50,378 nt of DNA from a virus (taxonomy: Duplodnaviria; Caudoviricetes): IMG/VR virus record IMGVR_UViG_3300047550_006758, positions 1 to 50,378 of that record, one strand, 5' to 3'. Positions within the stretch are counted from its first letter, which is position 1, and each line of letters opens with the position of its first letter. Made by a program: the position numbers and the translations under genes. Positions 1-50,252 of this stretch are shown piece by piece. Below the pieces are notes generated by a model that was not told the DNA's origin, did not search any database, and saw only the letters and a list, made by a program, of their open reading frames with translations.

Positions 1-1
1 C

Positions 2-1645
2 TACGATCGGTTCTTATTGTACTTAATTTTATATGGGTGTGTATTTAGGAAAATCTACTACGATCCGATTACAGGTAAGCCATTGAGCCGGTTTATCATG
101 CCTGAGGATTTTTTATTTGATAATAACTGCTCAAGTATTACCGAATCAAATCGTCTAACTCATATTAGATACCTCTCTAAAAGAGAAATCCTTTTTAACA
201 TGCAAAGCGGGATATTTTCAAAAGTTGATCTTGATTACTTAGATAGCGTAGGTAGCAGCGACGGGGAAGAATCAACAGACGACTCTAAAGCAAAACAGGT
301 AGACCCAACAAATTCCCGTTTTCCTTTTTATGAGACGCACGAATATCTGGTTTTGAATGATTTTTTTGACAATAACAATGCATCTGAGGACTATAGTATA
401 CCATTACCTTATGTTATTACCAGATGCGGCAGCAGTAATCAGATCGTATCACTTACACCAAACTGGGATGAAAACGATCCAACTAAAACAAGGATTAACT
501 GCTTTATTCATTATAATTTATTCCCCGGGTTTGATGTTTTTGGACTGGGGCTTGCTCAAATACTTGGCTCTAATTCAAAGAGCTTAACTTCCATGCAGCA
601 AATGGCGATTGACGCAGCTATTTTCCAGAATTTCCCGGGAGGGATGAAGGCTAAGGGAATAAAAACTACTAATAATGATTTGAATATATTACCTGGTCAA
701 TTCGTAACTGTTGAAACAGGGAATTTGTCCTTGCGTGATTCAATCATGCCGCTTCCTTATAATGGACCTTCGCCAGCTTTGCTTGAATATATTAACCGGA
801 TAACTGCTCAGACACAGGAACTAGCGTCCGCAACAGAGATGGGACTTACTGAAAATAATCAGAATACGCCTGTCGGTACTACGATTGCCTTGCTTGAAGT
901 ATCCAATCGGATGCAATCGGCAATAATGAGAACAGTCCATAGTAGCTTTAGCACCGAGCTACAGCTCTTTTATAAAATGTTCAATCTTAGCACGCTACCT
1001 CTAGATAAAGAGAGTTTAAAGGTCATTCCCGTATCTGATCCTTCTGTTGAATCTTCTACGCAGAGAATAATCAAGGCAGAAAGTATTTTAAAGTTAGCTA
1101 GCAGTAGCCCTGAGCTACATAACATGCGAGAAGTATATTTAAAAGTATATCAAGCCCTAGGGATTAAGGACATTGATAAGATACTCCTTCCCGAACCAGC
1201 ACCGCAAGAACAGCAGGAACAACAACCTATAGACCCTGCTCTACAGGTACAGATTGCTGATATTGAGCAGCGAAAACTTGAAGTAGAGTCCAAAGAACGG
1301 CTAGCTCACTTAAATATTGAAGCTGACGGCTATAAGACGCAAATGAGTATCGAGCTCGATAAGGAAAAACTGGAACAAGAGAAGTATTTGGCTGAATTAA
1401 AAGTTAATGAACAACAACAACTTGCCGAGCAGAAATATCAAATTGAACTTTTAAAGCTCCAGTTAAACGAGAAGGAAAAAGTAATAGATACGTTAACCAA
1501 GGAACAGGAAATGAGTACTAAGAACGAGCTTGAATTACTAAAGCTGGAATACAAAGCAAAAGAAGCTGAGTTAAAGGCACAAGTAGAAGCTCTAAGATCA
1601 GAACTATCATCCACACCAGAAAAAGAGGAGGTCATTTATGGATAG
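2..1645 (+). CDS. Phage portal protein, 5'-truncated by the window edge
   Basis: Near-identical to the C-terminal part of the 766-aa ORF that follows terL (43018-45318); coiled-coil C-terminus. Confidence 0.85.
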   Translation, partial: YDRFLLYLILYGCVFRKIYYDPITGKPLSRFIMPEDFLFDNNCSSITESNRLTHIRYLSKREILFNMQSGIFSKVDLDYLDSVGSSDGEESTDDSKAKQVDPTNSRFPFYETHEYLVLNDFFDNNNASEDYSIPLPYVITRCGSSNQIVSLTPNWDENDPTKTRINCFIHYNLFPGFDVFGLGLAQILGSNSKSLTSMQQMAIDAAIFQNFPGGMKAKGIKTTNNDLNILPGQFVTVETGNLSLRDSIMPLPYNGPSPALLEYINRITAQTQELASATEMGLTENNQNTPVGTTIALLEVSNRMQSAIMRTVHSSFSTELQLFYKMFNLSTLPLDKESLKVIPVSDPSVESSTQRIIKAESILKLASSSPELHNMREVYLKVYQALGIKDIDKILLPEPAPQEQQEQQPIDPALQVQIADIEQRKLEVESKERLAHLNIEADGYKTQMSIELDKEKLEQEKYLAELKVNEQQQLAEQKYQIELLKLQLNEKEKVIDTLTKEQEMSTKNELELLKLEYKAKEAELKAQVEALRSELSSTPEKEEVIYG

Positions 1646-1811
1646 ACAAAAAAGAGAAATAGCTTTGCACAAAATGCAAGAGAGAGCAAGAGAAAAGGAA
1701 ACAAGCTGTAATAAGTATGCTGCCGGTGGAGCGGCTAAAATTAGAAAAGACGTAGCTACCAAGAGCGGAGCGGCAGTAAAACCTAGAAATATGGGAAGGA
1801 GCAGTAAATGA
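1638..1811 (+). CDS. Small basic 57-aa phage protein (MDRQKREIALHKMQ...YAAGGAAK...GRSSK), absent from the ORF track
   Basis: GAGGAGG RBS, overlaps portal stop, ATGA overlap with next gene, conserved at 45311-45484. Confidence 0.8.
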   Translation: MDRQKREIALHKMQERAREKETSCNKYAAGGAAKIRKDVATKSGAAVKPRNMGRSSK

Positions 1812-2032
1812 TTGGAATGAACCGAAATAACATTTATAGCCGAGGTTCTTTTACCTCCGGCTTTATAGGAAGTATTGAGTCTGAAATTGATAGATACAGG
1901 CGTATTTTATGTAATCCGGCATCAATTTCTACGCTAGAGGATTACAAATATCATGTGGGATTAATTGAGGGGCTTGAGAGTTCCCTTGAACTCTTTAACA
2001 GGCACATAATAGAGGTAAATAACAATGACTAA
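1808..2032 (+). CDS. Conserved small phage protein (EDYKYHVGLIEGL motif)
   Basis: Coupled to neighbours; conserved in copy B; typical position before phage GroES. Confidence 0.75.
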   Translation: MIGMNRNNIYSRGSFTSGFIGSIESEIDRYRRILCNPASISTLEDYKYHVGLIEGLESSLELFNRHIIEVNNND

Positions 2033-2453
2033 CTGTGAAATAACCAATTACAAACCGGAAGATTTTAAAACCAAAGGAATTGATCTCCAAAGCTTTAATA
2101 AGGAGGTAATGATTGAAAGATTTAAGGAAGTATCGGTTACCGGCATTAACGTCTTAATTCTTATTTACAAACCTCCTGTTGAAGAAGTTACAAGAGGCGG
2201 AGTTATTATTCCGCAAACGGCCGTAAAGGATGACCTGGAATATAACTCAATGGTCGGGATGGTATTAAAGCTGGGCCCCGATAGTTATAAGGGCGATCAG
2301 TTTCCAAGCGGCCCTTACGTCAAAGCCGGAGACTGGGTCATATTCCCGCGTGGTTCATCATTGCAGTCAAAATATGAGGGTGAACCGATAATTATGGTAG
2401 AGGATTTTAAAATCAAGCTGCTAGTCGATAATCCATCAAAAGTATCAAGGTAA
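2025..2453 (+). CDS. Phage-encoded GroES/Cpn10-like co-chaperonin
   Basis: TRGGVIIP mobile-loop motif, GMVLKLGP and VKAGDWVIF match the Cpn10 pattern. Confidence 0.88.
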   Translation: MTNCEITNYKPEDFKTKGIDLQSFNKEVMIERFKEVSVTGINVLILIYKPPVEEVTRGGVIIPQTAVKDDLEYNSMVGMVLKLGPDSYKGDQFPSGPYVKAGDWVIFPRGSSLQSKYEGEPIIMVEDFKIKLLVDNPSKVSR

Positions 2454-2457
2454 GAAT

Positions 2458-3444
2458 ATGTTTAAAATAGATATTGAAAATACAAGCGACTTAAACGCTG
2501 CTATTCCACCTTTAAAAGAAGTAGCCGAAAATAAAGATTCAAAGAATGAAGCTAGCGAGGCAGAAGTAGAAACTAAAGACTTAGGGCAAGATACTCAAGG
2601 TGTAGATAGTAGCGATGATAAAAGCGATATTTCCGCAGATGTTTCCGAAAAAGAAGAAAAGCCTACTAAAACCTCTGCTCCTGACAAAGACAAGGAAAAA
2701 TACTGGTCTAAATTAAAAAAAGAACGTGAAGAAAAGGTAAAGCTTGCTGAGCAATTAGAGCAGTTACAGCAAGAAAAACTACAAATGGAACAAATGCTCA
2801 GCCAAGCTATTAATACCGGTTCTACCCATTATAAGAACAATGTTGCCAGCGAACTTGAAATGGCTCAGGCACGGCTTCAATTAGCACTGGAAAACGGGGA
2901 TGCTGCTGGAGTTAGCAGAGCTACTGCGGATATTTCAAAGGCGACTCATGCCTTGAATGAGGCATCTAGAATCGCCAGTTTTCCTAAAGAAGAATACTCA
3001 CAAGAGCATCTAAATCAGATTAGGGCAAGGGAATATGAAGATAGGTTATATAGCTGGCTTGAAAGTAATCCTGAAGTAGATAGAAACGCCCCTGAGTATG
3101 ATGAGAAGCTAGCGACCTCAGTATTATCCTTTATTACTAAACTGGATCGTAAATACCAAAGTGGAGGAAAAGAACATCTAATAGGCTCTGGTAGTTATTA
3201 CGGCATGATTGATGATTATATTGATAATTTAAAAATGCAGGATACTTCCTCAGCCATGATTCCTGCTAAACATTTTGGAGCAGTTCGCAGTCGCGCTCCA
3301 CGAGAATCAATACCTGATCCAAAAACAAGGGAATTAAGCGATAGAGAGAAAAAGGCAGCTCTTGCTTTTGGTATGTCTTACGAGAGGTACCGGGAGCTTC
3401 TAGATCAACGTAACAAAGAAATGAGGTCAAAAAATGGCAATTAA
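2458..3444 (+). CDS. Putative capsid scaffolding protein
   Basis: Acidic disordered N-terminus, coiled coil, C-terminal LSDREKKAALAFGMSYERY helix pair; lies between portal and capsid. Confidence 0.65.
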   Translation: MFKIDIENTSDLNAAIPPLKEVAENKDSKNEASEAEVETKDLGQDTQGVDSSDDKSDISADVSEKEEKPTKTSAPDKDKEKYWSKLKKEREEKVKLAEQLEQLQQEKLQMEQMLSQAINTGSTHYKNNVASELEMAQARLQLALENGDAAGVSRATADISKATHALNEASRIASFPKEEYSQEHLNQIRAREYEDRLYSWLESNPEVDRNAPEYDEKLATSVLSFITKLDRKYQSGGKEHLIGSGSYYGMIDDYIDNLKMQDTSSAMIPAKHFGAVRSRAPRESIPDPKTRELSDREKKAALAFGMSYERYRELLDQRNKEMRSKNGN

Positions 3445-3889
3445 ATATAAACAAGACAAAAATAATGAATTTCTATCTATTAATAGAGATATCAGGGAGC
3501 ATGAACTTGAAGGAAGTGATTTTGATTTGATGCTCACCGATTCAACCTGTCCTTTTAAAGCTTTAATCGATGAAATAATGCAACCGGGCGAGGAATATTA
3601 TTTTGCTTATAATAATCCTGAGCGCATTAACAGGTTACTGGCAAAAAAGTGGTATGTCGTATCTCCTGATAGGCTTAAAAACAAACGTACTTATAGAGGA
3701 GACTTAAGATCGGAAAATGATTGTATTACTACCGGTGATACTATTGTTTTAGCACGTGATGAACGCTACGGGCTAAAAGAGCAGCAATATTATGAACAAA
3801 AAGCCGTAAGAGTAATGCGAGATACTTTGCAAAAAGTACAGACCGATATTTACAATCCGGTCATGCCGTTTTCTGATAGAGCAATGTAG
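3434..3889 (+). CDS. Conserved phage head-module protein
   Basis: Overlaps scaffold stop; conserved in copy B. Confidence 0.7.
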   Translation: MAIKYKQDKNNEFLSINRDIREHELEGSDFDLMLTDSTCPFKALIDEIMQPGEEYYFAYNNPERINRLLAKKWYVVSPDRLKNKRTYRGDLRSENDCITTGDTIVLARDERYGLKEQQYYEQKAVRVMRDTLQKVQTDIYNPVMPFSDRAM

Positions 3890-3898
3890 AAGAATATC

Positions 3899-4990
3899 AT
3901 GTCATATTCTAAAATCATACTAGATAGCGATATTAAACTATCCTGGCCTTATCCCCGCACTGAAGGGGAGATTGCTAGTGACATTAATAATGTTATCTCT
4001 GAGAGTGATACCTATACTATTACTCTCCCACCTGCAAATACTGTAGAAACCGGTACTAGCTTGTTGTTTAATAATGTCGGGAGCTGTGATTTTACTTTGT
4101 TAGATAATGCAGGTAACCCGATTGGAACTGTACTAGTTCCTGGGGAAGTTAGGCAGATATATTTAACCGAGAATTTAACCGTTGCAGGAAGTTGGAATGT
4201 AATACCTTTTGGTGGGGGAACAAGTGGAATTATTACGTTTTCAGCGGAATCGGATAATAATTCATTAAATATTACAAATTCAACTGTTACTCCTCCGACC
4301 GGTAACATTATTTTTAAAATTGCCGATTCGTTGAATAATTTAAATAACCTGGCTACTCAGGTACAGAATGGGTTTTTAGTAATAACCGGTAATACTCCAT
4401 TAAGTTTTGTAACTCGAAAGATAGGAGGCGGCACCAATATAAATGTACAAAGCGGTGATGGGGAAACAAATGATGTAATTATTAATTTAGCCGATTCTCT
4501 AGTAGGATTATCCAGTATTAATGTAGGTAATCTCTTAATCTCGGTAAATACGATTACCACGGCAAGCGGGAGTGAGGATATTAACCTCGCTACTGTAGAT
4601 GATGGAGTAATCAATTTAAACAGTACTCAAATTGATAATATCGGTAATATGACAATACCGGGGAAGATTATAAATCCTGCTACTGCTAAGGCTTATTGTT
4701 TCTTTTACGATAATAATGCCCCGACTAATAATATCCAGATAGAGAGCAGCTTTAATATAGCCTCGGTTAGCGGAGCGCAAGGGTCATATGTTATAACGTT
4801 TGCTACTCCTTTTCCTGATGGTAATTATTTAGTATTACCGGCATTAGCACGCGGAACGGAGGTCATAGCGCCGTTTCAGGTGTTCTTTAGGTCTAGATCT
4901 GCTACTGAATTTATTATTTTTACAACCGACACACTCGGTAATTTGCTTCCCGTACTTGATGGCGTATCCGTAGTGGTATTTGGTAATTAA
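3899..4990 (+). CDS. Beta-rich virion structural / fibre-like protein
   Basis: N/T/G/I-rich; C-terminal AKAYCFF...SFNIASVS...GSYVITFATPF resembles fibre-tip domains. Confidence 0.6.
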   Translation: MSYSKIILDSDIKLSWPYPRTEGEIASDINNVISESDTYTITLPPANTVETGTSLLFNNVGSCDFTLLDNAGNPIGTVLVPGEVRQIYLTENLTVAGSWNVIPFGGGTSGIITFSAESDNNSLNITNSTVTPPTGNIIFKIADSLNNLNNLATQVQNGFLVITGNTPLSFVTRKIGGGTNINVQSGDGETNDVIINLADSLVGLSSINVGNLLISVNTITTASGSEDINLATVDDGVINLNSTQIDNIGNMTIPGKIINPATAKAYCFFYDNNAPTNNIQIESSFNIASVSGAQGSYVITFATPFPDGNYLVLPALARGTEVIAPFQVFFRSRSATEFIIFTTDTLGNLLPVLDGVSVVVFGN

Positions 4991-5034
4991 AGGCTTGAAG
5001 ATATATAAGCTAAATCTAAAAATAGTAGCACGAT

Positions 5035-5064
5035 TTGCAAAAGTAACAGTATTTTTGCTATAAT
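5035..5064 (+). promoter_or_regulatory. Sigma70-type promoter for the capsid operon
   Basis: TTGCAA-N18-TATAAT with extended -10 (TGC TATAAT); both boxes conserved at 49112-49141 while the spacer differs. Confidence 0.75.
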
Positions 5065-5079
5065 ACAATTAGGTAAAAA

Positions 5080-5282
5080 AAGTCATAACCGGGCTTAAAA
5101 AGGTTTCCGTCATTGCTAGACGTTAAAAGGCGTAGTTTGTAGCTAAATCTTTTTCTAAAAAAGCTACCTCTGTCATCGCAAGACACAAAAAGGCTAGTTT
5201 TGAAACTTATCTATAACAAAGTTTATCGTCATAACTAGACGTTAAAAGGTCTCCTGAGCTTGAATTAGCTTATCTTTTTTTA
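5080..5282 (+). ncRNA. Putative structured leader RNA: four NGTC-7nt-G(A/G)CN-xxAAAAGG hairpin units interleaved with three further stem-loops
   Basis: Units at 5080, 5108, 5171 and 5227 with covarying closing pairs; conserved at 49159-49362. Confidence 0.6.
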
Positions 5283-5331
5283 AATTTAAAATATTTACGT
5301 TTTTTAATAATTAACAATATATGAGGAAATT

Positions 5332-6117
5332 ATGTCTAACGGCATTAATAGACCTTATGGTTTGGAAGTAGTTCAGTCTCAAATAGGAAACGGCGGAACA
5401 CAAAAACTAGGTCAATATTTTATTTACGCATCCGCTGACGGCTTAACTACGCAGCCAAACAGTATTTTTCAGGGTGATCCAGTTAAATTTGTAAGTGCCC
5501 CAGGCCTTGCTGTCATGGCAGGAACAATCGCACCACAAAAGTTATCAGCTCCAACAAACGGAACACAGGTACAAGCTGTTGCAACGGCAGATGCAGACGC
5601 TTTCCTTGGGGTGTTTATAAGCTGTGCTTATACTGATGCGAGTACCGGTATACTTGTAGAGTCTGATTACTGGCCAGGCGGTAGAGCGGTAAAAGCCGGC
5701 ACACCTATTATTGCATATGTTAATGATGATCCAATGGCAGTATTTAGAGTTCAAGTATCAAGTTCTCTTGCAGCTGCAACAGGAATTACTTTTTTAGCAA
5801 CCGGGCTTGGTCTTAATGCCAATTTATCAGTGGCAGGAATAACCTTCACGGATGCTACTGCTATCGCAGGTGGTCAAAACCCACGTACTGGTAGCAACGT
5901 ATATGGTTCTGTTTACTATCTCGACGGTTCAACTTACTCAGCTACTACAGCTACCTTAGACGTAAAAATTATTGGAATTGATCCGGTAATTACCGGCAGT
6001 AGCAATCCTACAGGATTAGTACCGGGAGTAAATATGCCGTTTACTAACCTACTAGTTAAGTTTAACAAGCACATGTATGGCTCAAGCGGCGTAGCAGGTC
6101 CAACAGCCGGAGCATAG
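5332..6117 (+). CDS. Putative capsid decoration / minor capsid protein
   Basis: GAGG RBS; A/G/T-rich; N-terminal xxPYGL motif; directly upstream of major capsid gene. Confidence 0.65.
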   Translation: MSNGINRPYGLEVVQSQIGNGGTQKLGQYFIYASADGLTTQPNSIFQGDPVKFVSAPGLAVMAGTIAPQKLSAPTNGTQVQAVATADADAFLGVFISCAYTDASTGILVESDYWPGGRAVKAGTPIIAYVNDDPMAVFRVQVSSSLAAATGITFLATGLGLNANLSVAGITFTDATAIAGGQNPRTGSNVYGSVYYLDGSTYSATTATLDVKIIGIDPVITGSSNPTGLVPGVNMPFTNLLVKFNKHMYGSSGVAGPTAGA

Positions 6118-6129
6118 GAGTATAAGGTT

Positions 6130-6255
6130 ATGTCCATAATAACAAGCGGTAATATGCCGTCTCTTTTAAAGGAAGGGTTATATCTACCGAAAGAGAAGAA
6201 GAAAACACCTGTTAAGGCAGGATCAATAAAGAAAACTAAAAATAAAGGTAATTAA
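6130..6255 (+). CDS. 41-aa peptide paralogous to the major capsid N-terminus, with Lys-rich tail
   Basis: MSIITSGNMPSLLKEGLYLPKEKKKTPVKAGSIKKTKNKGN; AGGAG/AAGG upstream; start conserved at 50240. Confidence 0.7.
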   Translation: MSIITSGNMPSLLKEGLYLPKEKKKTPVKAGSIKKTKNKGN

Positions 6256-6257
6256 TT

Positions 6258-7187
6258 ATGTCTATTATAACAACCGGTGATATTCCAAGTCTGCTTTGGC
6301 CGGGTCTTTATGAGGTAAAATCTCAGTATGATCGGTTTAAAGGGGAATATACCAAAATCTATGAACAGGCTAATTCTGTCAAACATACTGAGAGGATGGT
6401 TGATATTAGAGGCACTGGCTATGCACTTGAGAAAACCCAAGGCGCTCCTATTAAAATGGATAGCATGGCTGAGAGGTTTATTTATGAATTTGTCCACCGG
6501 GAATTTGCCCTCGGTTTTCAGATTACCAATATTGCCATGGAAGATGATCTTTATGCCGATCAGTTCTTTAATGGGACTAAATCGCTTACTACTTCCTATG
6601 AACAAACCAGAGAAGTAGTAGCAATGAATCCTTTTAACCAGGCGTTTAACGTAGCAGCAACGCAAAGTAACGGACAACCTCTCTGCTCCGGTTCTCAGCC
6701 TTATGACGGCGGTGTTTATTCTAACCGCGTCGGGGCATATAACGGCGTTAATGTTAATGTCGACTTTAGTGAAGCAGGCGTTGAACAGGCAGTAATACTA
6801 GCGGGTAAAATGAAAGATCAAGCAGGATTGCTAATTAATGCTCAAATTGAGAGATTGTTACTGCCGCAAGACTTAATGTTCTCAGGTTGCAGGTTACTTG
6901 AATCTGTATTTAGAACAGGAACGGCTAATAACGATATAAACGCACTTTATAACATGAAAGCTATTCCGCAAGGTTATGAAGTAAGCCATTTCTTAACAAG
7001 TCCTAGCAACTGGTTTGGATTAACTAACGTCAAGGGAACTCGTAAGCATTTCGTAAGACGACCTCTTAAAGTTAACGTAACAACTGATCCTGTAACTGAA
7101 ACCATGTCAGTACTTGCATCCGGTCGTTATTCTTTTGGTATGTTTACGCCTCGTGGTGTAATTGGCGCAACGGGATCAACAGCTTAA
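6258..7187 (+). CDS. Major capsid protein (Mu gpT-like, HK97 fold)
   Basis: SLLWPGL N-arm, HREFALGFQIT, LLLPQDL, GTANNDINA, HFLTSPSNWF and RYSFG motifs; 309 aa. Confidence 0.88.
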   Translation: MSIITTGDIPSLLWPGLYEVKSQYDRFKGEYTKIYEQANSVKHTERMVDIRGTGYALEKTQGAPIKMDSMAERFIYEFVHREFALGFQITNIAMEDDLYADQFFNGTKSLTTSYEQTREVVAMNPFNQAFNVAATQSNGQPLCSGSQPYDGGVYSNRVGAYNGVNVNVDFSEAGVEQAVILAGKMKDQAGLLINAQIERLLLPQDLMFSGCRLLESVFRTGTANNDINALYNMKAIPQGYEVSHFLTSPSNWFGLTNVKGTRKHFVRRPLKVNVTTDPVTETMSVLASGRYSFGMFTPRGVIGATGSTA

Positions 7188-38060: not shown

Positions 38061-38081
38061 TTACTTAATTAGATTATATTT

Positions 38082-38414: not shown

Positions 38415-38907
38415 TATTAAGAACTAGAATAATAATTAATAATTTTTTAACTAATATGCAAAAAAAATCGTCTTATTTTAAGAGGCTTAGAAGTGGTAGA
38501 TCGGATGGTTATAGTATGATTTTATGTGAACGGGAAAAATGCTGTTTAAATCGCATTTATGGAGGTTTTTGTTGATTGGGTAGAAAATCTGTGTAATTTT
38601 AGTTAAACTTTCCTTAATGTTTTAATATTTTATTAATAAATTTTCGCTTTATTTTCCATAACCTAAGTTATGTATTCAAATTTATACCCTTTTTTCTTTA
38701 ATTAATTTTAGCGATTTTTAAAAATGGGAATTTAAGCTAAGTACTAAAAAAATGAACCCCGCAAAATAAAAACAGAGTTCACTTTTAGTTTTTTCTAGGT
38801 GTATCTTAATGAAAAAATGTATCAAACTAACTTAAGAGATAATCATAGATACATCCGCGATGATACCATACTATCCTAATCAGTCAACAGCTAAATCTTT
38901 ACAAAAA

Positions 38908-39054
38908 TTATAGCTTGTTTTTCAGTTTCGCTATTTCCTCTAAACTAAAACCAGTGACAGAAGCAATAAGTTTATCATCTATTTTCTGTTTTAACATATT
39001 AAGAGCTGTCTTCTCCAAAATAGAATGTGCATTTGTTTTAATATCATTACTCAT
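38908..39054 (-). CDS. 48-aa stand-alone Rpn C-terminal-domain (RpnS-like) protein, absent from the ORF track
   Basis: MSNDIKTNAHSILEKTALNMLKQKIDDKLIASVTGFSLEEIAKLKNKL aligns with the Rpn tail; starts 5 nt after the rpn stop. Confidence 0.7.
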   Translation of the reverse strand: MSNDIKTNAHSILEKTALNMLKQKIDDKLIASVTGFSLEEIAKLKNKL

Positions 39055-39059
39055 TGAAA

Positions 39060-39938: not shown

Positions 39939-39950
39939 ATCAGTAATAAT

Positions 39951-41380: not shown

Positions 41381-43018
41381 ATGCACATGAGGCGCAAGTC
41401 CGATCATATAAAATTACCGCAAGTAATCCCGGCTTTAATGTCTACATTCGAGCAGAGTTACTTGGATGAATTATTTAAAGTACAAGAACAATTAGCAAAT
41501 AGCGAGGGTTCTTTATATGAATTCTTTAAATCGAGCTGGCCTTATATTGAAGGTAACATGCCATATATTGATAGCTGGCATATTAAGGCTATAGCTGAGC
41601 ATTTAGAGGCGGTTTATGTGCGCCAAATAAAGAAGCTTATTATTAATGTTCCGCCCCGCACGGGCAAGACCAATTTAATATCTGTAGCTTTTCCTGCCTG
41701 GGTATGGATACATAACCCTAGTGAGCGGTTCTTAACTGTATCCTGCGTGAATTCCTTAAGCCTTGAGCATGCACAGAAAAACAGAGCTTTACTCGAAAGT
41801 AGCTGGTATCAGGATAATTGGGGTTATAGATTCCCACTTCTTAAAGACCAGAACGTTAAGAGCTTTTTCCAGAATACCAAAACAGGATATAGGCAATCAA
41901 CAAGCGTAGTATCTAAAACTGTAGGTAAAGGCGGTTCAATTATTATCATTGATGACCCTAACGACCCAGGCGACTTATCTGAAGTAAAACGTGAGAACGT
42001 AATTAACTGGTGGACGCAAAGAATGTCTACCCGTTCAAATAACCCAGCTAATGACTGCCGAATAGTTGTTCAGCAAAGAACGCATGAGAACGATTTAACC
42101 GGTTATATCAGAAAGAATGACAGCGATGGTGATTGGGTAGAGTTGGTGCTACCCTTAGAGTTTGAAGAAAAGCGCAAGTGTATTACAGTTCCTCTTGGCA
42201 TAGATCAGATTATTTGGGAAGACCCCAGAAACAAAGAAGGAGAGGTACTAAGCGACTTACGCTTTGGCGAGAAGCAAGTAAATGAGTTAAAAAAGTTACT
42301 CGGCTCTTATGGATATGCTGGGCAGTGTCAGCAAAGACCATCTCCAATTGGCGGCGGAATAATCAAGAAAAAATGGTTTAAATTCTGGACTAGCCCGATT
42401 AAGCCTAAATTTGATTACATATTGCAAAGCTGGGACACGGCAATTTCCGATGAGCCTACAGCTGCGTATTCTGCTTGCAGCACTTGGGGAGTTTGGGGTG
42501 AAAAATCCGAGGATGAGCTATTTAGGATGATGCTACTTTCCGTTTGGCGTGATCGAGTAGGATATCCTGATCTTCGAGCTAGAGCCCAGCGCTTAGCGAA
42601 AGATTATAAAGATACAGGCGAGCATAAAAATCCAATGCCGGCTCAAAGAACTGTTGATATTTGCCTTATTGAGGCAAAGGCAACGGGTGATCCGTTAATT
42701 CGGGACTTAAGACTCGCTGGTATTCCGGCTATAGGCTACATGCCAAAAGGCGATAAGGGAGCAAGAGTCCAGAGAGCAGCGCCGTTTATTGAGTGCGGGC
42801 TTATTTATTTGCAGGCCGAAGAGAAAAACCCTGAAAGGCTAACCGTTACGGCCGAGGAGTTTTTAGAAACAGTGATAACTTTTCCAAACGGGGAATCAAA
42901 AGACCTGGTTGATTCGATGACACAGGCAATTTTGTACCTTAGAGACTTTGATACTTTAATTCATACAAGTGATGTTAAGGAAGATGAGATCGTTACTAAA
43001 CCTAGAAAATTATACTAA
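41381..43018 (+). CDS. terL: Terminase large subunit
   Basis: INVPPRTGKT Walker A, IIIIDDP Walker B, QQR.HE.DL, QQRP, QSWDTA, DLVDSMTQA nuclease motifs. Confidence 0.95.
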   Translation: MHMRRKSDHIKLPQVIPALMSTFEQSYLDELFKVQEQLANSEGSLYEFFKSSWPYIEGNMPYIDSWHIKAIAEHLEAVYVRQIKKLIINVPPRTGKTNLISVAFPAWVWIHNPSERFLTVSCVNSLSLEHAQKNRALLESSWYQDNWGYRFPLLKDQNVKSFFQNTKTGYRQSTSVVSKTVGKGGSIIIIDDPNDPGDLSEVKRENVINWWTQRMSTRSNNPANDCRIVVQQRTHENDLTGYIRKNDSDGDWVELVLPLEFEEKRKCITVPLGIDQIIWEDPRNKEGEVLSDLRFGEKQVNELKKLLGSYGYAGQCQQRPSPIGGGIIKKKWFKFWTSPIKPKFDYILQSWDTAISDEPTAAYSACSTWGVWGEKSEDELFRMMLLSVWRDRVGYPDLRARAQRLAKDYKDTGEHKNPMPAQRTVDICLIEAKATGDPLIRDLRLAGIPAIGYMPKGDKGARVQRAAPFIECGLIYLQAEEKNPERLTVTAEEFLETVITFPNGESKDLVDSMTQAILYLRDFDTLIHTSDVKEDEIVTKPRKLY

Positions 43019-45318
43019 TGGCAACAAGAAGGAAGCAAAAAGGAAAGACTAATCTTGATTTATCGGTGCTAGAGAATTTAGAGCCTGAATCTCTAAATCT
43101 TACTCAAGAAATGCCGATAGAAGAACAAATCCTGCTACAGGAAACAGGTAGTTTAGATGAACCGGTTTTACCGGAAGAAGAAGCACTTATTTCCCTAGAA
43201 GATCAAATCTTATCACGTATAGATAACGAAGCGGAAGAATTAGCACCTTCCCCTACTACCTTTAATAGTAATTTTGCAGATGATATACCGGAAAGCGTCA
43301 GAGATAAAATCGCTGCCTACTTAGAAGAGGTAACGGTAAAAGATACAAAAAACCGTGCGCCCTGGCTTGATATAATTGAAAAAGCTAAAACCTTACTTGG
43401 CTTTAAAATTGAGGAAATACAAGAGCCGGGTAATGTAAATACGCGTAAATCTAATGCAATCGGTAATGCCGCACAAGTTAAAACTTACGATACTACCTTC
43501 TCAAGCAGTGTCTTGAGATTATGGGCAACGCTTCGCTCCGAGTTACTCCCCTCAACCGGTCCTGTAGGATTTAGGACTGATGTTAGTGTGAGCGAAGATT
43601 ACGAATTAAAAGGTGAGATGGTCAGGGATGCTTTAAATGAGTACTTAACAGTAGAAGATAAGGGCTTTTATCCAGACTACGATCGGTTCTTGTTATATTT
43701 GATTTTATATGGGTGTGTATTTAGGAAAATCTACTACGACCCGATTACAGGTAAGCCATTGAGCCGGTTTATCATGCCAGAGGACTTTTTATTTGATAAT
43801 AACTGCTCAAGTATTACCGAATCAAATCGCCTGACTCATATTAGATACCTCTCTAAAAGAGAAATACTTTTTAACATGCAGAGCGGGATATTCTCAAAAG
43901 TTGATCTTGATTACCTAGATAGCGTAGGAAGCAGCGATGGGGAAGAAGCAACAGACGACTCTAAAGCAAAACAAGTAGACCCCACAAATTCCCGTTTTCC
44001 TTTTTATGAGACGCACGAATATCTGGTTTTGAATGATTTTTTTGACAATAACAATGCATCTGAAGACTATAGTATCCCACTACCTTACGTTATTACCAGA
44101 TGCGGCAACAGTAATCAGATCGTATCACTTACGCCAAACTGGGATGAAAATGATCCAACCAAAACAAGGATTAACTGCTTTATTCATTATAATTTATTTC
44201 CTGGGTTTGATGTTTTTGGACTGGGGCTTGCTCAAATACTTGGCTCTAATTCAAAGAGCTTAACTTCAATGCAGCAAATGGCGATTGACGCGGCTATTTT
44301 CCAGAATTTCCCGGGAGGGATGAAGGCTAAGGGAATAAAAACTACTAATAATGATTTGAATATATTACCCGGTCAATTCGTAACTGTTGAAACAGGGAAT
44401 TTGTCGCTTCGTGATTCAATCATGCCACTTCCTTATAATGGACCATCGCCAGCTTTACTTGAATATATTAACCGGATAACTGCCCAGACACAGGAATTAG
44501 CGTCCGCAACAGAGATGGGACTCACTGAAAATAATCAGAATACGCCTGTCGGTACTACGATTGCGTTGCTTGAAGTATCCAATCGGATGCAATCGGCAAT
44601 AATGAGAACAGTCCATAGTAGCTTTAGCCAGGAGTTGCAGCTCTTTTATAAAATGTTCAACCTGCCATCACTACCTCTAGACAAAGAGAGTTTAAAAGTA
44701 ATCCCTGTATCTGATCCATCGGTTGAATCTTCTACGCAGAGAATAATCAAGGCAGAGAGTATTTTAAAGTTAGCTAGCAGTAGCCCTGAGCTACATAACA
44801 TGCGAGAAGTATATTTAAAAGTATATCAAGCCCTAGGGATTAAGGACATTGATAAGATATTGTTACCTGAAGCAGCACCGGAGCAGCAACAGGAGCAACC
44901 AATAGACCCAGCCCTACAGGTTCAGATTGCTGACATTGAGCAACGAAAACTTGAAGTAGAGTCAAAAGAACGGCTAGCTCATTTAAATATTGAAGCTGAC
45001 GGCTACAAAACTCAGATGAATATTGAACTTGATAAGGAAAAACTAGAACAAGAGAAGTATTTAGCTGAGTTAAAAGTATCAGAACAACAACAACTTGCTG
45101 AGCAGAAATATCAAATTGAACTTTTAAAACTCCAGTTAAACGAGAAGGAAAAAGTAATAGATATACTAACCAAAGAGCAGGAAATAAACAGTAAAAACGA
45201 GCTTGAATTACTACGGCTTGAGTATAAAGCAAAAGAAGCTGAGTTAAAGGCACAAGTAGAAGCTCTAAGATCAGAAATTTCATCCATACCAAAAAAAGAG
45301 GAGGTAATTTATGGATAG
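43018..45318 (+). CDS. Phage portal protein (full length)
   Basis: Directly follows terL; 766 aa; GCVFRKIYYD, PVGTTIALLE, coiled-coil tail. Confidence 0.88.
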   Translation: MATRRKQKGKTNLDLSVLENLEPESLNLTQEMPIEEQILLQETGSLDEPVLPEEEALISLEDQILSRIDNEAEELAPSPTTFNSNFADDIPESVRDKIAAYLEEVTVKDTKNRAPWLDIIEKAKTLLGFKIEEIQEPGNVNTRKSNAIGNAAQVKTYDTTFSSSVLRLWATLRSELLPSTGPVGFRTDVSVSEDYELKGEMVRDALNEYLTVEDKGFYPDYDRFLLYLILYGCVFRKIYYDPITGKPLSRFIMPEDFLFDNNCSSITESNRLTHIRYLSKREILFNMQSGIFSKVDLDYLDSVGSSDGEEATDDSKAKQVDPTNSRFPFYETHEYLVLNDFFDNNNASEDYSIPLPYVITRCGNSNQIVSLTPNWDENDPTKTRINCFIHYNLFPGFDVFGLGLAQILGSNSKSLTSMQQMAIDAAIFQNFPGGMKAKGIKTTNNDLNILPGQFVTVETGNLSLRDSIMPLPYNGPSPALLEYINRITAQTQELASATEMGLTENNQNTPVGTTIALLEVSNRMQSAIMRTVHSSFSQELQLFYKMFNLPSLPLDKESLKVIPVSDPSVESSTQRIIKAESILKLASSSPELHNMREVYLKVYQALGIKDIDKILLPEAAPEQQQEQPIDPALQVQIADIEQRKLEVESKERLAHLNIEADGYKTQMNIELDKEKLEQEKYLAELKVSEQQQLAEQKYQIELLKLQLNEKEKVIDILTKEQEINSKNELELLRLEYKAKEAELKAQVEALRSEISSIPKKEEVIYG

Positions 45319-45484
45319 GCAAAAAAGAGAGTTAGCTACTCGCCAAATGCAGGAAAGGGTTAAAGAACGAAGCGAAAGCTGCAATAAATATGCTGCCGGT
45401 GGCGCTGCTAAGATTAGAAAAGATGTAGCTACAAAAAGTGGAGCGGCAGTGAAACCTAGAAATATGGGGAGGAGCAGTAAATGA
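45311..45484 (+). CDS. 57-aa basic protein, copy B
   Basis: Same length and frame as 1638-1811. Confidence 0.8.
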   Translation: MDRQKRELATRQMQERVKERSESCNKYAAGGAAKIRKDVATKSGAAVKPRNMGRSSK

Positions 45485-45705
45485 TTGGCGTGAACCGAAA
45501 TAACATTTATAGCCGAGGTTCTTTTACTTCGGGTTTTATAGGAAATATTGAGGCTGAGATTGATAGATACAGGCGTATTTTAAGTAATCCGGCATCAATT
45601 TCTACGCTAGAGGATTACAAATATCACGTGGGATTAATTGAAGGACTTGAGAGCTCCCTTGAACTCTTTAACAGGCACATAATAGAGGTAAATAACAATG
45701 ATTAA
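45481..45705 (+). CDS. Conserved small phage protein, copy B
   Basis: Paralog of 1808-2032. Confidence 0.75.
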   Translation: MIGVNRNNIYSRGSFTSGFIGNIEAEIDRYRRILSNPASISTLEDYKYHVGLIEGLESSLELFNRHIIEVNNND

Positions 45706-46126
45706 CCATGAAATAGCCAATTACAAGGCAGAAGATTTTAAAACTTTGGGAATTGATCTATCAATTTTTGATAAGAAAGCAATGATTGAAAGATTTCGGG
45801 AAGTATCGGTTACCGGAATTAATGTATTAATTCTTATTTACAAACCTCCGCTAGAGGAGGTTACAAGAGGAGGAATTATAAAACCACCGAGCGCCGTCCA
45901 AGATGATTTAGAATATAACTCAATGGTCGGGATGGTATTAAAGCTTGGCCCCGATAGTTATAAGGGCGATCAGTTTCCAAGCGGCCCTTACGTCAAAGCT
46001 GGAGACTGGGTTATATTCCCCCGTGGTTCATCGTTGCAGTCAAAATACGAGGGTGAGCCGATAATTATGGTAGAGGATTTTAAAATCAAACTGCTAGTCG
46101 ATAATCCATCAAAAGTATCAAGGTAA
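45698..46126 (+). CDS. GroES-like co-chaperonin, copy B
   Basis: Paralog of 2025-2453. Confidence 0.88.
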   Translation: MINHEIANYKAEDFKTLGIDLSIFDKKAMIERFREVSVTGINVLILIYKPPLEEVTRGGIIKPPSAVQDDLEYNSMVGMVLKLGPDSYKGDQFPSGPYVKAGDWVIFPRGSSLQSKYEGEPIIMVEDFKIKLLVDNPSKVSR

Positions 46127-46130
46127 GAAT

Positions 46131-47117
46131 ATGTTTAAAATAGATATTGAAAATACAAGCGACTTAAACGCTCCTATTCCACCTTTAAAAGAAGCAACTG
46201 AAAATAAAGATTCAAAGGAAGAAGCCAGCGAGGTAGAAGTAAGAACTAAAGACTTGGAGCAAGGGTCGCAGGGCTTAGAAGGCGAGGATGATAAAACCGA
46301 TATTTCCGCAGATGTTTCCGAAAAAGAAGAAAAACCTGCTAAAACCTCTACGCCTGACAAAGATAAGGAAAAATACTGGTCTAAATTAAAAAAAGAACGG
46401 GAAGAAAAAGCAAAGCTTGCCGAGCAATTAGAGCAGTTACAGCAAGAAAAACTGCAAATGGAACAGATGCTCAGCCAAGCAATTAATACCGGTTCTACCC
46501 ATTATAAGAACAATGTTGCCAGTGAACTTGAAATGGCTCAGGCACGGCTTCAATTAGCACTGGAAAACGGAGATGCTGCTGGAGTTAGCAGAGCTACTGC
46601 TGAGATTTCAAAGGCAACCCATGCCTTGAATGAGGCATCTAGAATCGCTAGTTTTCCTAAAGAAGAATACTCACAAGAGCATCTAAATCAGATTAGGGCA
46701 AGGGAATATGAAGATAGGTTATATAGCTGGCTTGAGAGTAATCCTGAAGTAGATAGGAACGCCCCTGAGTATGATGAGAAGCTAACGGCGTCAGTATTAT
46801 CCTTTATTAAAAAGCTGGATCGTAAATACCAGACCGGAGGAAAGGAACATCTAATAGGCGGAAGCGGTTATTACGGCATGATTGATGAGTATATTGATAA
46901 TTTAAAAATGCAGGATACTTCCTCAGCCATGATTCCCGCCAAACATTTTGGAGCAGTTCGCAGTCGCGCTCCACGAGAATCAATACCTGATCCAAAAACA
47001 AGGGAATTAAGCGAGAGAGAGAAAAAGGCAGCTCTTGCTTTTGGTATGTCTTACGAGAGGTATCTCGAGCTTCTAGATAAACGTAACAAAGAAATGAGGT
47101 CAAAAAATGGCAATTAA
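46131..47117 (+). CDS. Putative scaffolding protein, copy B
   Basis: Paralog of 2458-3444. Confidence 0.65.
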   Translation: MFKIDIENTSDLNAPIPPLKEATENKDSKEEASEVEVRTKDLEQGSQGLEGEDDKTDISADVSEKEEKPAKTSTPDKDKEKYWSKLKKEREEKAKLAEQLEQLQQEKLQMEQMLSQAINTGSTHYKNNVASELEMAQARLQLALENGDAAGVSRATAEISKATHALNEASRIASFPKEEYSQEHLNQIRAREYEDRLYSWLESNPEVDRNAPEYDEKLTASVLSFIKKLDRKYQTGGKEHLIGGSGYYGMIDEYIDNLKMQDTSSAMIPAKHFGAVRSRAPRESIPDPKTRELSEREKKAALAFGMSYERYLELLDKRNKEMRSKNGN

Positions 47118-47562
47118 ATATAAACAAGACAAAAATAATGAGTTTAAATCCATAGATAGAGATATCAGGGAGCATGAACTTGAAAACAATGATTTTGATT
47201 TAATGCTCACCGATTCAACATGTCCTTTCAAGTCTCTTATTGATGAGATAAAGGAGCCGGGTGAGGAATATTACTTTGCTTATAATAATCCTGAGCGCAT
47301 TAACAGATTACTGGCAAAGAAGTGGTATATCGTATCTCCTGATAGGCTTAAAAACAAACGTACTTATAGAGGAAATTTAAGAGAGGAAAACGACTGCATT
47401 ACTACTGGCGATACAATCCTTTTAGCTCGTGATGAACGTTACGGGCTTAAAGAGCAGCAATATTATGAACAAAAAGCCGTAAGGGTCATGCGGGATACGC
47501 TGCAAAAAGTACAGACCGATATCTACAATCCGGTCATGCCGTTTTCTGATAGAGCAATGTAG
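47107..47562 (+). CDS. Conserved head-module protein, copy B
   Basis: Paralog of 3434-3889. Confidence 0.7.
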   Translation: MAIKYKQDKNNEFKSIDRDIREHELENNDFDLMLTDSTCPFKSLIDEIKEPGEEYYFAYNNPERINRLLAKKWYIVSPDRLKNKRTYRGNLREENDCITTGDTILLARDERYGLKEQQYYEQKAVRVMRDTLQKVQTDIYNPVMPFSDRAM

Positions 47563-47571
47563 AAGAATATC

Positions 47572-48663
47572 ATGTCATATTCTAAAATCATACTTAATAG
47601 CGATATTAAACTATCCTGGCCTTATCCCCGCACTGAAGGGGAGATTGCAAGCGATATTAATAATGTTATCTCCAGCAATGATATTTATACTATTACTCTT
47701 CCCCCAAGCAATACTGTAGAAACCGGTACTAGCTTGTTGTTTAATAATGTCGGACAAAAAGACTTTACCCTTTTATATAATGACGGAACGCCGCTAACTA
47801 ACGTAATTATTCCCGGGGAGGTAATACAGATATATCTAACTGAGAATCTAACCAGTAAAGGAATATGGCAAGTAATACCTTTTGGGGGAGGTAGTAGCGG
47901 CATAGTAAGTTTTTCTACAGAAAGTCTGAATAACAGCTTGCTGATTACAAATTCAACTGTTACTCCTCCGACCGGTAACATTATTTTTAAGGTTGCCGAC
48001 TCGTTGAATAATTTAAATAACCTGGCTACTCAGGTACAGAATGGATTTTTAGTAATAACCGGTAATACTCCGCTTTCATATGTTACCAGAAAAATAGGCG
48101 GTGGCTCTAATATAACCTTGCAAAGCGGTGATGGGGTTAGCGGCGATGTAATTATTAATTTAGCCGATTCTTTAGCTGGGTTATCCAGTATCAATGTAGG
48201 TAATCTCTTAATATCTGTAAATACGATTACCACGGCAAGCGGGAGTGAGGATATTAACCTCGCTACTGTAGATGACGGAGTAATCAATTTAAACAGTACT
48301 CAAATTGACAATATCGGTAATATGACAATACCGGGGAAGATTATAAATCCCGCTACTGCTAAGGCTTATTGTTTCTTTTACGATAATAATTCACCTACCA
48401 GTAATATCCAGATAGAGAGCAGCTTTAATATAGCATCGGTTAGCGGAGCAAACGGGTCTTATGTTGTGAAGTTTGCTACTCCTTTTCCTGACGGTAATTA
48501 TGCTGTATTAACAACACTTAGCAGAGGAGCGGAAGTAGTAGCACCGTTTCAGGTGTTCTTTAGGTCTAGATCTGCTACTGAATTTATTATTTTTACAACC
48601 GACACACTCGGTAATTTGCTTCCCGTACTTGATGGCGTATCCGTAGTGGTATTTGGTAATTAA
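47572..48663 (+). CDS. Beta-rich structural protein, copy B
   Basis: Paralog of 3899-4990. Confidence 0.6.
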   Translation: MSYSKIILNSDIKLSWPYPRTEGEIASDINNVISSNDIYTITLPPSNTVETGTSLLFNNVGQKDFTLLYNDGTPLTNVIIPGEVIQIYLTENLTSKGIWQVIPFGGGSSGIVSFSTESLNNSLLITNSTVTPPTGNIIFKVADSLNNLNNLATQVQNGFLVITGNTPLSYVTRKIGGGSNITLQSGDGVSGDVIINLADSLAGLSSINVGNLLISVNTITTASGSEDINLATVDDGVINLNSTQIDNIGNMTIPGKIINPATAKAYCFFYDNNSPTSNIQIESSFNIASVSGANGSYVVKFATPFPDGNYAVLTTLSRGAEVVAPFQVFFRSRSATEFIIFTTDTLGNLLPVLDGVSVVVFGN

Positions 48664-48689
48664 AGGGGATAAAACTTGATAGAAAGAAT

Positions 48690-49088
48690 ATGCAAGAGAA
48701 TAAAGAATTAAAAATATATGATTATACAGTTATAGGAATGTTTTTAAATCCTGAAGGGTTTTTTGCCGTTAAGGTAAGCCTAGACAAAAATAATAAACAT
48801 AAAGTAATTTTAAAATTTGCTAACAAACTCATAGAAGATTTATTTAAAAATGTGATTTCCGAAGAAGAAATAGAAAACAAACTAAATGCTCTTTTAATGG
48901 TAAATAGCAAATTTCTTTTTATTAGATTGGTTAGATTGGCACTTGGCAGTGAAAGAATCAAAACGCAATTAAGAGCAAATCAGACAGGTATATTTATACT
49001 GACTGGCGAAAAATGGCAAAAAATAATGGATAGGATAGAACAAGAAGAGCTTGAAGTAATACTTGCTCAAGGGCTTGAAGATATCTGA
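48690..49088 (+). CDS. Hypothetical protein present only in copy B
   Basis: 132-aa ORF; only its last codons remain in copy A (4991-5008). Confidence 0.7.
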   Translation: MQENKELKIYDYTVIGMFLNPEGFFAVKVSLDKNNKHKVILKFANKLIEDLFKNVISEEEIENKLNALLMVNSKFLFIRLVRLALGSERIKTQLRANQTGIFILTGEKWQKIMDRIEQEELEVILAQGLEDI

Positions 49089-49111
49089 ACAACCCTAAAT
49101 AGTAGTACAAT

Positions 49112-49141
49112 TTGCAAAAGTGGTAACCTTTTTGCTATAAT
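49112..49141 (+). promoter_or_regulatory. Capsid operon promoter, copy B
   Basis: TTGCAA-N18-TATAAT. Confidence 0.75.
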
Positions 49142-49158
49142 ATAATTAGGTAGAAAAA

Positions 49159-49362
49159 AAGTCATGACTAGACTTAAAAAGGTTCCCGTCATTGCTAGAC
49201 GTAAAAAGGCGTAGTTTGTAGCTAAATCTTTTTCTTAAAAAGCTACCTCTGTCATCGCAAGACACAAAAAGGCTAGTTTTGAAACTTATCTAGAATCAAA
49301 GTTTATCGTCATAACTAGACGTTAAAAGGTCTCCTGAGCTTGAATTAGCTTATCTTTTTTAA
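49159..49362 (+). ncRNA. Structured four-hairpin leader, copy B
   Basis: Stems conserved relative to 5080-5282; differences fall mainly in loops and linkers. Confidence 0.6.
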
Positions 49363-49410
49363 ATCTAAAATATTTATATTTTTTAATAATTAACAATATA
49401 CGAGGAAATT

Positions 49411-50229
49411 ATGTCTAATGGCATTAACGCTCCTTATGGATTGCAAATAGTTCAATCTCAAATAGGAAATGGCGGAACACAAAAATTAGGCCAATACTTT
49501 ATTTATGCCTCTGCTGATGGTCAAACTACTTGGAACACTAGTATCTTTCAAGGTGATATGGTTAAATATTATCCAGCAAGAACTGCTGCTACATGGGATG
49601 CTCAATTAGGTACTATAGTACCAGCATTAACTCCACAAGCTGGGGCTGCGGCAAACACAATAGTAGGAGTACCTGTAGGAATTTTTATAGGTTGTGAATT
49701 TACAGATGCTTTAACTGGCTATCAAGTAAATTCTGATTATTGGCCAGCAAGCAGACAAGTTAAAGCAGGTACAAAAATCATTGCTTGGGTTAATGATGAT
49801 CCAGAAGTAGTATTTAAAACTCAGATTTCTACTTCAACGAATAACACTCCTGCAGCTACTCAAAACAACATTGCTCCATCTATATTTCAAAATATTTTTT
49901 CTGGTCAAAATGCCAAATTACAAGTAGGAGGAGTAGCTTTTACTGCCCCTGCGGCGGCAATTCCTACCAATAATCCAGCAACAGGTAATACTACAACTGG
50001 ACAGTCTGCTTATTACTTAGATGGTAGTTCAATAACTTTGGCTGTTGGAAATGCTGGTAATCCAACATTTGAAATAAAAATTATTGGATTAGTTCCAGAA
50101 TTACAGACAAATGCAAATCCTGCGGGATTAGTACAAGGTATAAATATGCCTTTTATTGATGTGTTATGTAAATTTAACGTGCATATCCATGGGTCTACAG
50201 GTACTCCAGGTGTATTCTTCACTAACTAG
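49411..50229 (+). CDS. Capsid decoration protein, divergent allele
   Basis: Shares N-terminus, SDYWP, VNDDP and G.NMPF blocks with 5332-6117. Confidence 0.65.
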   Translation: MSNGINAPYGLQIVQSQIGNGGTQKLGQYFIYASADGQTTWNTSIFQGDMVKYYPARTAATWDAQLGTIVPALTPQAGAAANTIVGVPVGIFIGCEFTDALTGYQVNSDYWPASRQVKAGTKIIAWVNDDPEVVFKTQISTSTNNTPAATQNNIAPSIFQNIFSGQNAKLQVGGVAFTAPAAAIPTNNPATGNTTTGQSAYYLDGSSITLAVGNAGNPTFEIKIIGLVPELQTNANPAGLVQGINMPFIDVLCKFNVHIHGSTGTPGVFFTN

Positions 50230-50252
50230 GATTAGGATTATGTCCATAATAA

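Follow-up and report, generated by a model that had tools for sequence, protein, structure and literature searches.

The window analysed here is the whole of IMG/VR record IMGVR_UViG_3300047550_006758, a contig of 50,378 bp that is classed as linear with a CheckV completeness of 97%, and it carries one phage portal-to-scaffold module twice, as copy A at its start and as the diverged copy B at its end. The original prediction had taken this layout for a physical head-to-tail tandem of two related phage genomes; instead, the contig is most probably one assembly-graph walk through a mixed population of a circular, ~44-kb phage-like episome of a Megaira-type Rickettsiales symbiont of protists. Against the tandem stand the single module copy in all 10 long relatives, the position of both contig ends inside the repeated module, swarms of variants in metagenomes, and a transposon at which the contig breaks off.

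Such a walk would begin inside the portal gene of variant A, whose transposon site is empty, circle once via the single-copy backbone until it reached the gene for TerL again, and then enter the portal-to-scaffold module of variant B. It would halt 126 nt into the Tn3-family transposon of variant B, just upstream of the capsid gene, because a multi-copy element is uncrossable for the assembler. A and B would then be alleles of one locus in different genomes and not two loci on one molecule, and we infer that the join from A through the backbone to B is a graph path rather than a molecule. The 37.5-kb middle is not assignable to either variant and may be a mosaic. The features on which this reading draws are as follows.

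1-6142 (+): copy A of the portal-to-scaffold module, the "empty site" allele; portal gene cut by the contig start
6143-43676 (no strand): single-copy remainder, collinear with relatives G002, G006, G007 and G008, a metagenome-assembled genome (MAG) contig and the plasmid of Ca. Megaera polyxenophila NDG2
43677-50252 (+): copy B of that module, in one piece with an intact portal gene of 766 aa and, upstream, the TerL gene
48667-49068 (+): copy-B-specific stretch, the gap between BLAST pieces; ~400 nt not in copy A
49411-50229 (+): 272-aa allele of the gene directly upstream of the capsid gene; its counterpart is the 261-aa open reading frame (ORF) at 5332-6117
50238-50252 (+): transposon insertion point, the last 15 nt in common with copy A (6128-6142)
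50253-50378 (+): Tn3-family terminal inverted repeat (approximately the first 38-47 nt) followed by 80-90 nt of interior, inside which the contig stops

Organization of the two module copies

The copies were compared by BLAST of the window against itself, by repeat finding and by global alignment. Self-BLAST returned four collinear matches and no other repeat system in the window: 1-4993 with 43677-48666 at 90.1% identity (5001 columns, 476 mismatches, 9 gap openings), 4989-5488 with 49069-49567 at 86.7%, 5614-5746 with 49684-49816 at 70.9%, and 5963-6083 with 50075-50195 at 73.0%. The final shared stretch is the identical 15 nt at the insertion point, where homology ends; the last 126 nt are unrelated to the sequence that follows copy A. 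The repeat finder agreed, with offsets between the copies of 43673-44080, and the global alignment of A against B gave 482 mismatches in 4985 aligned columns with a longest identical run of 123 nt. The recurrence of 1-6142 at 43677-50252, as first described from the sequence, is real at these coordinates and far above chance. The ~43.7 kb first given as the size of the unit is merely the distance between the copies and no measured genome length; complete relatives span 55-64 kb.

The many synonymous changes, indels, extra gene and swapped allele that had been noted between the copies were all found again. Five gene pairs share 87-97% protein identity with synonymous divergence (dS) of 0.21-0.50 and a ratio of nonsynonymous to synonymous divergence (dN/dS) of 0.06-0.25, and the indels include the nine gap openings and the ~400-nt copy-B stretch. 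The extra gene is a 132-aa ORF at 48690-49088 that lies mostly within that stretch, and the swapped allele is the sixth pair, of 261 and 272 aa, with 54% amino acid identity and a dS of 1.3. The copies of a direct terminal repeat are identical, since each round of replication regenerates them. Given the mismatches, the additional ORF and the allele pair with 54% identity, the earlier view that this is not simple terminal redundancy stands.

Both contig ends lie inside the repeated module. Copy A runs from base 1, in the middle of the portal gene at codon ~221 (its portal match, 2-1642, corresponds to residues 221-766 at 97%), through a GroES-like ORF, three further ORFs (328, 151 and 363 aa) and the 261-aa ORF, and continues without a break into a small ORF and the probable capsid gene. 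The 261/272-aa gene is probably the scaffold gene, judged by its position alone. Its B-type allele is 96.5% identical in locus L021, where it precedes the small ORF and capsid gene that are also found after copy A. The copy-B-specific stretch is a presence/absence cassette, 97.7% identical in the single-copy relatives L066, L041 and L015; the homologous position is annotated in the NDG2 plasmid (55940-56323), with a BrnT toxin cassette following it.

Over its first ~31 nt, the small ORF (6130-6257) is much like the beginning of the probable capsid ORF (6258-6290), with few differences by eye, and has the look of a duplicated gene start. The arrangement recurs in L021 and G002; in the NDG2 plasmid, a small ORF is annotated at the corresponding position.

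Tn3-family transposon end at the 3' boundary

A BLAST search with the 126-nt tail covered 61 relatives of the Rickettsiales MAG that bears the phage, and 10 of them gave matches. Five of the six strongest begin exactly at tail base 1 and are 42-47 nt long; they lie in the Megaira-like genomes G021, G011 (two sites), G016 and G020, and the boundary of the tail is sharp because the flanks of all these copies are unrelated. Three copies stand at contig ends (G021:C59 14-54; G011:C50 12-54; G011:C54 7706-7748 of 7759), and the element therefore breaks assemblies. Together with a copy near the start of a G016 contig, their positions suggest that the element is active or was so recently.

On contig G020:C48, two copies of the repeat in inverted orientation, at 1348 and 5527, flank the genes for a protein of 1022 aa with the DDE_Tnp_Tn3 domain (E 3.7e-78) and for a resolvase of 195 aa (E 4.5e-44). 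This interval (L109) is a complete 4.2-kb Tn3-family transposon with inverted repeats of ~45 nt. Because the tail shares its repeat with an element encoding these two proteins, it is, as judged from sequence comparison, the terminal inverted repeat and a little of the interior of a Tn3-family element. It appears foreign to the phage, since L021, with its B-type allele, has the small ORF and the capsid gene after the shared motif. The inverted repeats of the family are ~38 bp long and start with GGGG. In variant B the element sits 13 nt inside the beginning of the small ORF that precedes the probable capsid gene; in variant A this site is empty.

The likeness to the G020:C48 element is confined to the repeat: the genomic copies differ from the tail beyond ~45 nt, and the window contains no more than 126 nt of the element. 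The tail may belong to a different Tn3 family member or to a miniature derivative. The repeat has a single occurrence in the window and none in the two Megaira plasmids, the MAG contig, the four complete relatives or the remaining loci retrieved. The tail was without a match in the 87 loci compared with it, and exact 49-nt scans for it in viral and metagenome contig collections returned nothing. In metagenome run X3, a Logan contig matches 49527-50281 with zero mismatches and reaches 29 nt into the tail, which falls below the 31-letter bridging rule and gives only a hint that the junction of variant B and the transposon exists in that run.

Two further roles for Tn3 elements were considered and rejected. 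A simple Tn3 cointegrate of A and B should have a transposon copy between the units, and there is none after copy A. The relatives' ~200-aa resolvase is not part of the same transposon, as the inverted repeat is absent from all four; it belongs to something else, possibly multimer resolution.

The tail length of 126 nt equals k-1 for k=127. The exact end overlap of G002 is 127 nt, and k=127 was therefore used for at least one such record; the length of the tail may reflect the same value. Since the longest run of identity between A and B is 123 nt, a graph with k up to 127 keeps their paths separate.

The two ends also bear on a terminal-redundancy heterozygote, a linear molecule packaged by the headful from a recombinant concatemer after mixed infection, of which T4 is the classical case. 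The layout, with different alleles of 6.6 kb at the two ends, fits this explanation, and recombination genes are present. An assembly is a consensus, however, in which the ends of one particle would be lost unless one long read made up the whole contig; what stands at the 3' side is the end of a transposon, then a break, and no packaging end; a redundancy of 15% would be large; and the relatives assemble as circles with short exact overlaps. We regard a heterozygote of this kind as extremely improbable.

Comparison with single-copy circular relatives

A portal search found 71 IMG/VR loci, with 73 of the 74 candidate stretches confirmed. The same search that gave two portal matches in the window gave one in each of the 10 long relatives; nine of these are IMG/VR records (44-60 kb) and the tenth is the MAG contig of 62.7 kb. 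G002, G006 and G008 (56-59 kb, CheckV completeness 100%) close on themselves with exact end overlaps of 127, 120 and 21 nt, respectively; the MAG contig showed no self-overlap. These three circles are collinear with the window at 70-95% identity, whereas they differ from it in their closed ends, their single portal and their ~200-aa resolvase.

Window 1-41831 follows G002 from 56838 down to 1, window 41705-48692 follows it from 58855 down to 51829, and window 49065-49557 corresponds to G002 51463-50976. Given this collinearity all the way round, the contig circles the genome once and covers 6 kb of it (G002 56838-50976) a second time. Identity to G002 is 92-95% in copy A and ~89% in copy B. 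The smaller size of the window's unit compared with its relatives comes from the accessory region (31348-39947), which is ~15 kb shorter than in the complete relatives (1850-23218 in G002), and mismatch-free Logan contigs from runs X1 and X2, which cover much of 31405-41042, support this short version. The exact first 49 nt of copy A were also found in two IMG/VR contigs, with a normal portal N-terminus and TerL upstream; such matches are expected under every model and do not discriminate between them.

Megaira plasmids and host assignment

Portal matches in the genome collection fell in Rickettsiales assemblies at all four loci (two MAGs, Ca. Megaera venefica and Ca. Bandiella numerosa), and those in PLSDB were to CP113869.1 (89%), AP017967.1 (87%) and a plasmid of Ca. 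Bealeia paramacronuclearis (35%). With two closed Ca. Megaera polyxenophila plasmids carrying portals at 87-89%, the Rickettsiales-like host first proposed is supported. The window is without host DNA; the genome-collection matches and the shared transposon end are indirect evidence, consistent with residence in a Megaira or other Rickettsiales cell.

CP113869.1 (Ca. Megaera polyxenophila NDG2, plasmid unnamed2, circular, 64,423 bp) aligns with the window in 18 collinear blocks at 79-90% around the whole circle. Tail fibre, patatin, four large ORFs, RecT, YqaJ, methylases, ParA, the PD-(D/E)XK gene, porin, terminase, portal, GroES-like ORF and capsid region all stand in the window's order. It differs in having one portal-to-scaffold copy, in exceeding the window's 43.7-kb offset by 20 kb, and in lacking the Tn3-type repeat; it is annotated as a plasmid and not as a phage. 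It also carries group II introns, IS256, toxin-antitoxin cassettes and two large GTP-binding proteins that the window does not have. Its internal repeats are limited to two pairs, one of group II introns and one of paralogues; the intron copies (14216-16188 and 28546-30518 in L098) are 99.8% identical. According to PMC10847448, NDG2 was assembled in Unicycler from Nanopore and Illumina reads, and its monomeric circle therefore has long-read support.

The second plasmid, pPCS109 (AP017967.1, Ca. Megaera polyxenophila PCS, circular, 109,307 bp), contains the same phage module with one portal place, but it is a composite with a plasmid part that includes a DnaA-like initiator, a nonribosomal peptide synthetase and a second parA. 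Its size is due to this other plasmid DNA and to added insertion sequences (IS), and not to two phage units; many 100%-identical IS copies interrupt its phage module. No self-repeat of module size was found in CP113869.1 or AP017967.1.

From these alignments, the window appears to belong to the phage-like plasmid lineage of Megaira polyxenophila represented by CP113869.1 and AP017967.1. The statement that intact podovirus-type phages are little described in this group was thus only partly right, as GenBank already contains the element under the name of Megaira plasmids and there is a publication on a Megaira phage; the supplementary plasmid lists of PMC10847448 may describe the lineage further. 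Davison et al. 2023 (PMC10132079) makes no mention of phage, plasmid, terminase or extrachromosomal elements. The Bealeia plasmid (NZ_CP133271.1, 57,518 bp), from a different Paramecium endosymbiont, carries its 35%-identical portal at 30975-32594, a hint that phage-like plasmids may form a wider group among the symbionts of protists.

Variant populations in metagenomes

Copy A is up to 99.3% and copy B up to 97.7% identical to contigs from other samples, whereas A and B are 90% identical to each other. The closest relative switches nearly every kilobase along the copies; this is a recombining swarm of variants. A and B are old alleles that circulate separately, as indicated by their dS, by their closer relatives outside the window and by the presence of B features in single-copy relatives.

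Twenty runs from 14 studies (X1-X20) contain part of the last 10 kb of the window, and four of them contain at least half of the sampled words. Near-identical 31-mers of these 10 kb come from freshwater, wastewater, "aquatic" and one "marine"-labelled metagenome dated 2015-2025, and the lineage is widespread in geography and time. For runs X1-X4, Logan contigs, the form in which all 24 available runs exist, were aligned to the last 20 kb at ≥85% identity, the listed pieces being 281-2168 nt long; contigs of this kind cannot show linkage, depth ratios or absence. X1 gave 367 pieces on the 20 kb (150 at ≥99%, 75 at 95-99%, 89 at 90-95% and 53 below 90%), and X2, X3 and X4 gave 716, 121 and 1819 pieces, respectively, in all identity classes. 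Among the variant rows listed inside copy B with another letter, six of seven have the letter of copy A. At 43929-43974, the contigs listed for two runs of one sample are only B-type in X1 and only A-type in X2.

These comparisons also bear on a genuine duplication of part of a single replicon, or on a tandem prophage that has integrated; copy A would then be a retained second module. That Megaira plasmids can be composite, as pPCS109 is with its 109 kb and many IS copies, favours such an origin, yet pPCS109 itself has one portal place. Neither end of the window shows host genes or attachment-site features, and there is no integrase. Both copies have intact frames under purifying selection and closer relatives elsewhere; because each is closer to outside contigs than to the other copy, the pattern is not that of duplication in place. 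A duplication is therefore very unlikely.

Assembly walk or physical heterodimer

The same contig could come from a physical heterodimer, in which co-resident variants A, with the empty site, and B, with the transposon, were fused by one homologous crossover, by way of RecT/YqaJ or of the host's recombination, into a ~90-kb circle; the contig would show the part of it from A through the backbone to B. The gene order is exactly what this predicts, and the element encodes RecT, a YqaJ exonuclease and ParA. The window lacks the small resolvase of all four complete IMG/VR relatives, and dimers of the Wolbachia plasmid pWCP, though of like units, are reported from long reads (PMC13734603). A second module copy, however, occurs in none of the 10 long relatives and in neither of the two closed Megaira plasmids, and the NDG2 plasmid, without an annotated resolvase, is still a monomer. 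The two ends of the contig lie in the middle of a gene and at a repeat element, and neither is a dimer-specific junction. Where a tandem would have unit-specific or host sequence beyond the repeat at both ends, the window has the 126-nt transposon end only. The samples hold many variants and not two, and the B-only and A-only contigs of X1 and X2 argue against a fixed 1:1 link, if weakly, as contigs drop minor variants. We consider the heterodimer unlikely, and the more specific proposal, that two 90%-identical Megaira phage-plasmid variants persist as a dimer left unresolved through loss of the resolvase, is similarly doubtful.

Several points nevertheless weigh against the assembly walk that we prefer. 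A single crossover between an A circle and a transposon-bearing B circle gives an identical walk, and no Logan contig piece from X1-X4 (contigs, not reads) spans the whole stretch. At the contig start, copies A and B have merely 15 identical bases in common; the start is without the signature of a fork between A and B in the graph, and the cause of the 5' end is unexplained. A long-read origin of the contig would weaken the reading as an artefact, though an artefact would still be possible. All four complete IMG/VR relatives carry the ~200-aa serine resolvase in their accessory region and the window is without it; if this enzyme resolves multimers, its lack would favour dimers.

Gene content and lifestyle

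The single-copy remainder holds structural genes, four large ORFs without an assigned family, a recombination module, an accessory and regulatory region, the porin gene and the TerL gene. The main genes of the element are listed below.

6258-7187 (+): probable major capsid protein, Mu GpT-like; ESM Atlas feature search 0.99
13627-14787 (+): patatin-like phospholipase, inside the structural module; PF01734, E 7.6e-26
26548-27420 (-): RecT-family single-strand annealing protein; phrog_2449, E 5e-102; PF03837, E 3.8e-27
27655-28563 (-): YqaJ-type recombination exonuclease; phrog_434, E 5e-80; PF09588, E 9e-31
37395-38021 (+): ParA-type partition ATPase; PF13614, PF01656 and PF09140, all above their cut-offs
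39060-39938 (-): PD-(D/E)XK-family transposase-like gene; PF12784, E 5e-17
39951-41231 (-): Gram-negative porin gene, just upstream of the TerL gene; PF13609, E 5e-18
41381-43018 (+): TerL, large terminase subunit; phrog_38, E 1.7e-73
43018-45318 (+): intact portal of SU10 type; phrog_1216, E 9e-25; PF23899 SU10_portal, 33 bits against a cut-off of 30

The identification as a phage genome was upheld by TerL, the SU10-type portal, tail fibres and the probable Mu GpT-like capsid, which mark it as that of a tailed phage. The capsid candidate gave no PHROG, Pfam or PDB sequence match, and all 30 of its ESM Atlas matches belong to the Phage_capsid_4/Mu-like_gpT set; the assignment is probable, a lead short of proof. 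An SU10 adaptor profile scored 20.6 bits against a cut-off of 27. PHROG scans of the window's ORFs detected no tape-measure, sheath or tube families, and a podovirus morphology is plausible from the genes alone. Among cultured phages, TerL and the portal come closest to those of roseophages and pelagiphages, at 29-41%, with TerL 41% identical to that of Roseobacter phage CRP-902; the GenBank phage collection held nothing close (TerL ≤41%, portal ≤32%).

The Bet/Exo pair invoked earlier as the agent of recombination has a functional equivalent in RecT and the YqaJ exonuclease, and a RuvC-like resolvase gene is also present. Six-frame hidden Markov model (HMM) searches of the window for PF00589 tyrosine integrases and PF00239 serine recombinases were negative, which agrees with the earlier failure to recognize an integrase, and the same kind of search gave no tyrosine integrase in the four complete relatives. 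No replication protein was recognized among 40 ORFs scanned with PHROGs and 40 with Pfam. A "ParA family protein" is annotated in the NDG2 plasmid at the place syntenic to the window's ParA gene. With ParA, virion genes, no integrase and closed extrachromosomal relatives, the element fits a phage-plasmid, that is, an episomal prophage.

Further genes encode tail fibres, a GroES-like protein and a C5 methyltransferase. The patatin gene is also annotated in the NDG2 plasmid and pPCS109. The PD-(D/E)XK and porin pair is likewise found in the NDG2 plasmid and, syntenic, in pPCS109, and a porin encoded by a phage inside an intracellular symbiont may deserve attention. On the minus strand, 19929-26156 contains four large ORFs (604, 311, 662 and 486 aa), and the G+C content rises there, to 0.44 at 24-26 kb. 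They gave no significant PHROG or Pfam family and one sub-threshold DUF5788 match; relatives have them at ~85-89% identity, and both Megaira plasmids carry them with the annotation "hypothetical". Ankyrin repeats were found in none of five records (the window and the four complete relatives).

Significance and comparison with known systems

The main value of these results is a caution. A diverged repeat confined to the ends of a viral contig, in a lineage whose complete members are circles with a single copy, is the outcome to be expected from a graph walk through a strain mixture, and to take it for a tandem, for a long terminal repeat or for additional genome length would be a mistake; the true unit here would be ~44 kb and not 50.4 kb. 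The underlying element is real and moderately interesting, as a ParA-bearing, integrase-less and strongly mosaic episome with porin and patatin genes, one variant of which has a Tn3-family transposon shared with host genomes. Its novelty is modest, the lineage having already been deposited as "plasmids". If the heterodimer were true, it would be a physical record of co-infection of an endosymbiont cell and of mosaic module exchange.

Among known systems, the Wolbachia plasmid pWCP forms a head-to-tail dimer that is documented by four raw long reads over 14 kb (PMC13734603). The likeness is that of a head-to-tail episome dimer in a member of the Rickettsiales; the difference is that pWCP has two complete consecutive units checked by long reads, whereas the window has partial, 90%-identical units without read support. 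MAnkyphage of Megaira polyxenophila, reportedly described by George et al. in 2023 (Curr Biol), is a phage of the same host genus; ankyrin repeats, sought as a link to it, are absent from the window and from the four complete relatives.

Wrap-around or concatemer-like contigs are a general assembly artefact of circular genomes from strain mixtures. The window resembles them in having a repeat at both contig ends only, copies that have diverged past k-mer identity and single-copy relatives. It differs in that one end is fixed by the transposon of variant B, which explains the exact stop.

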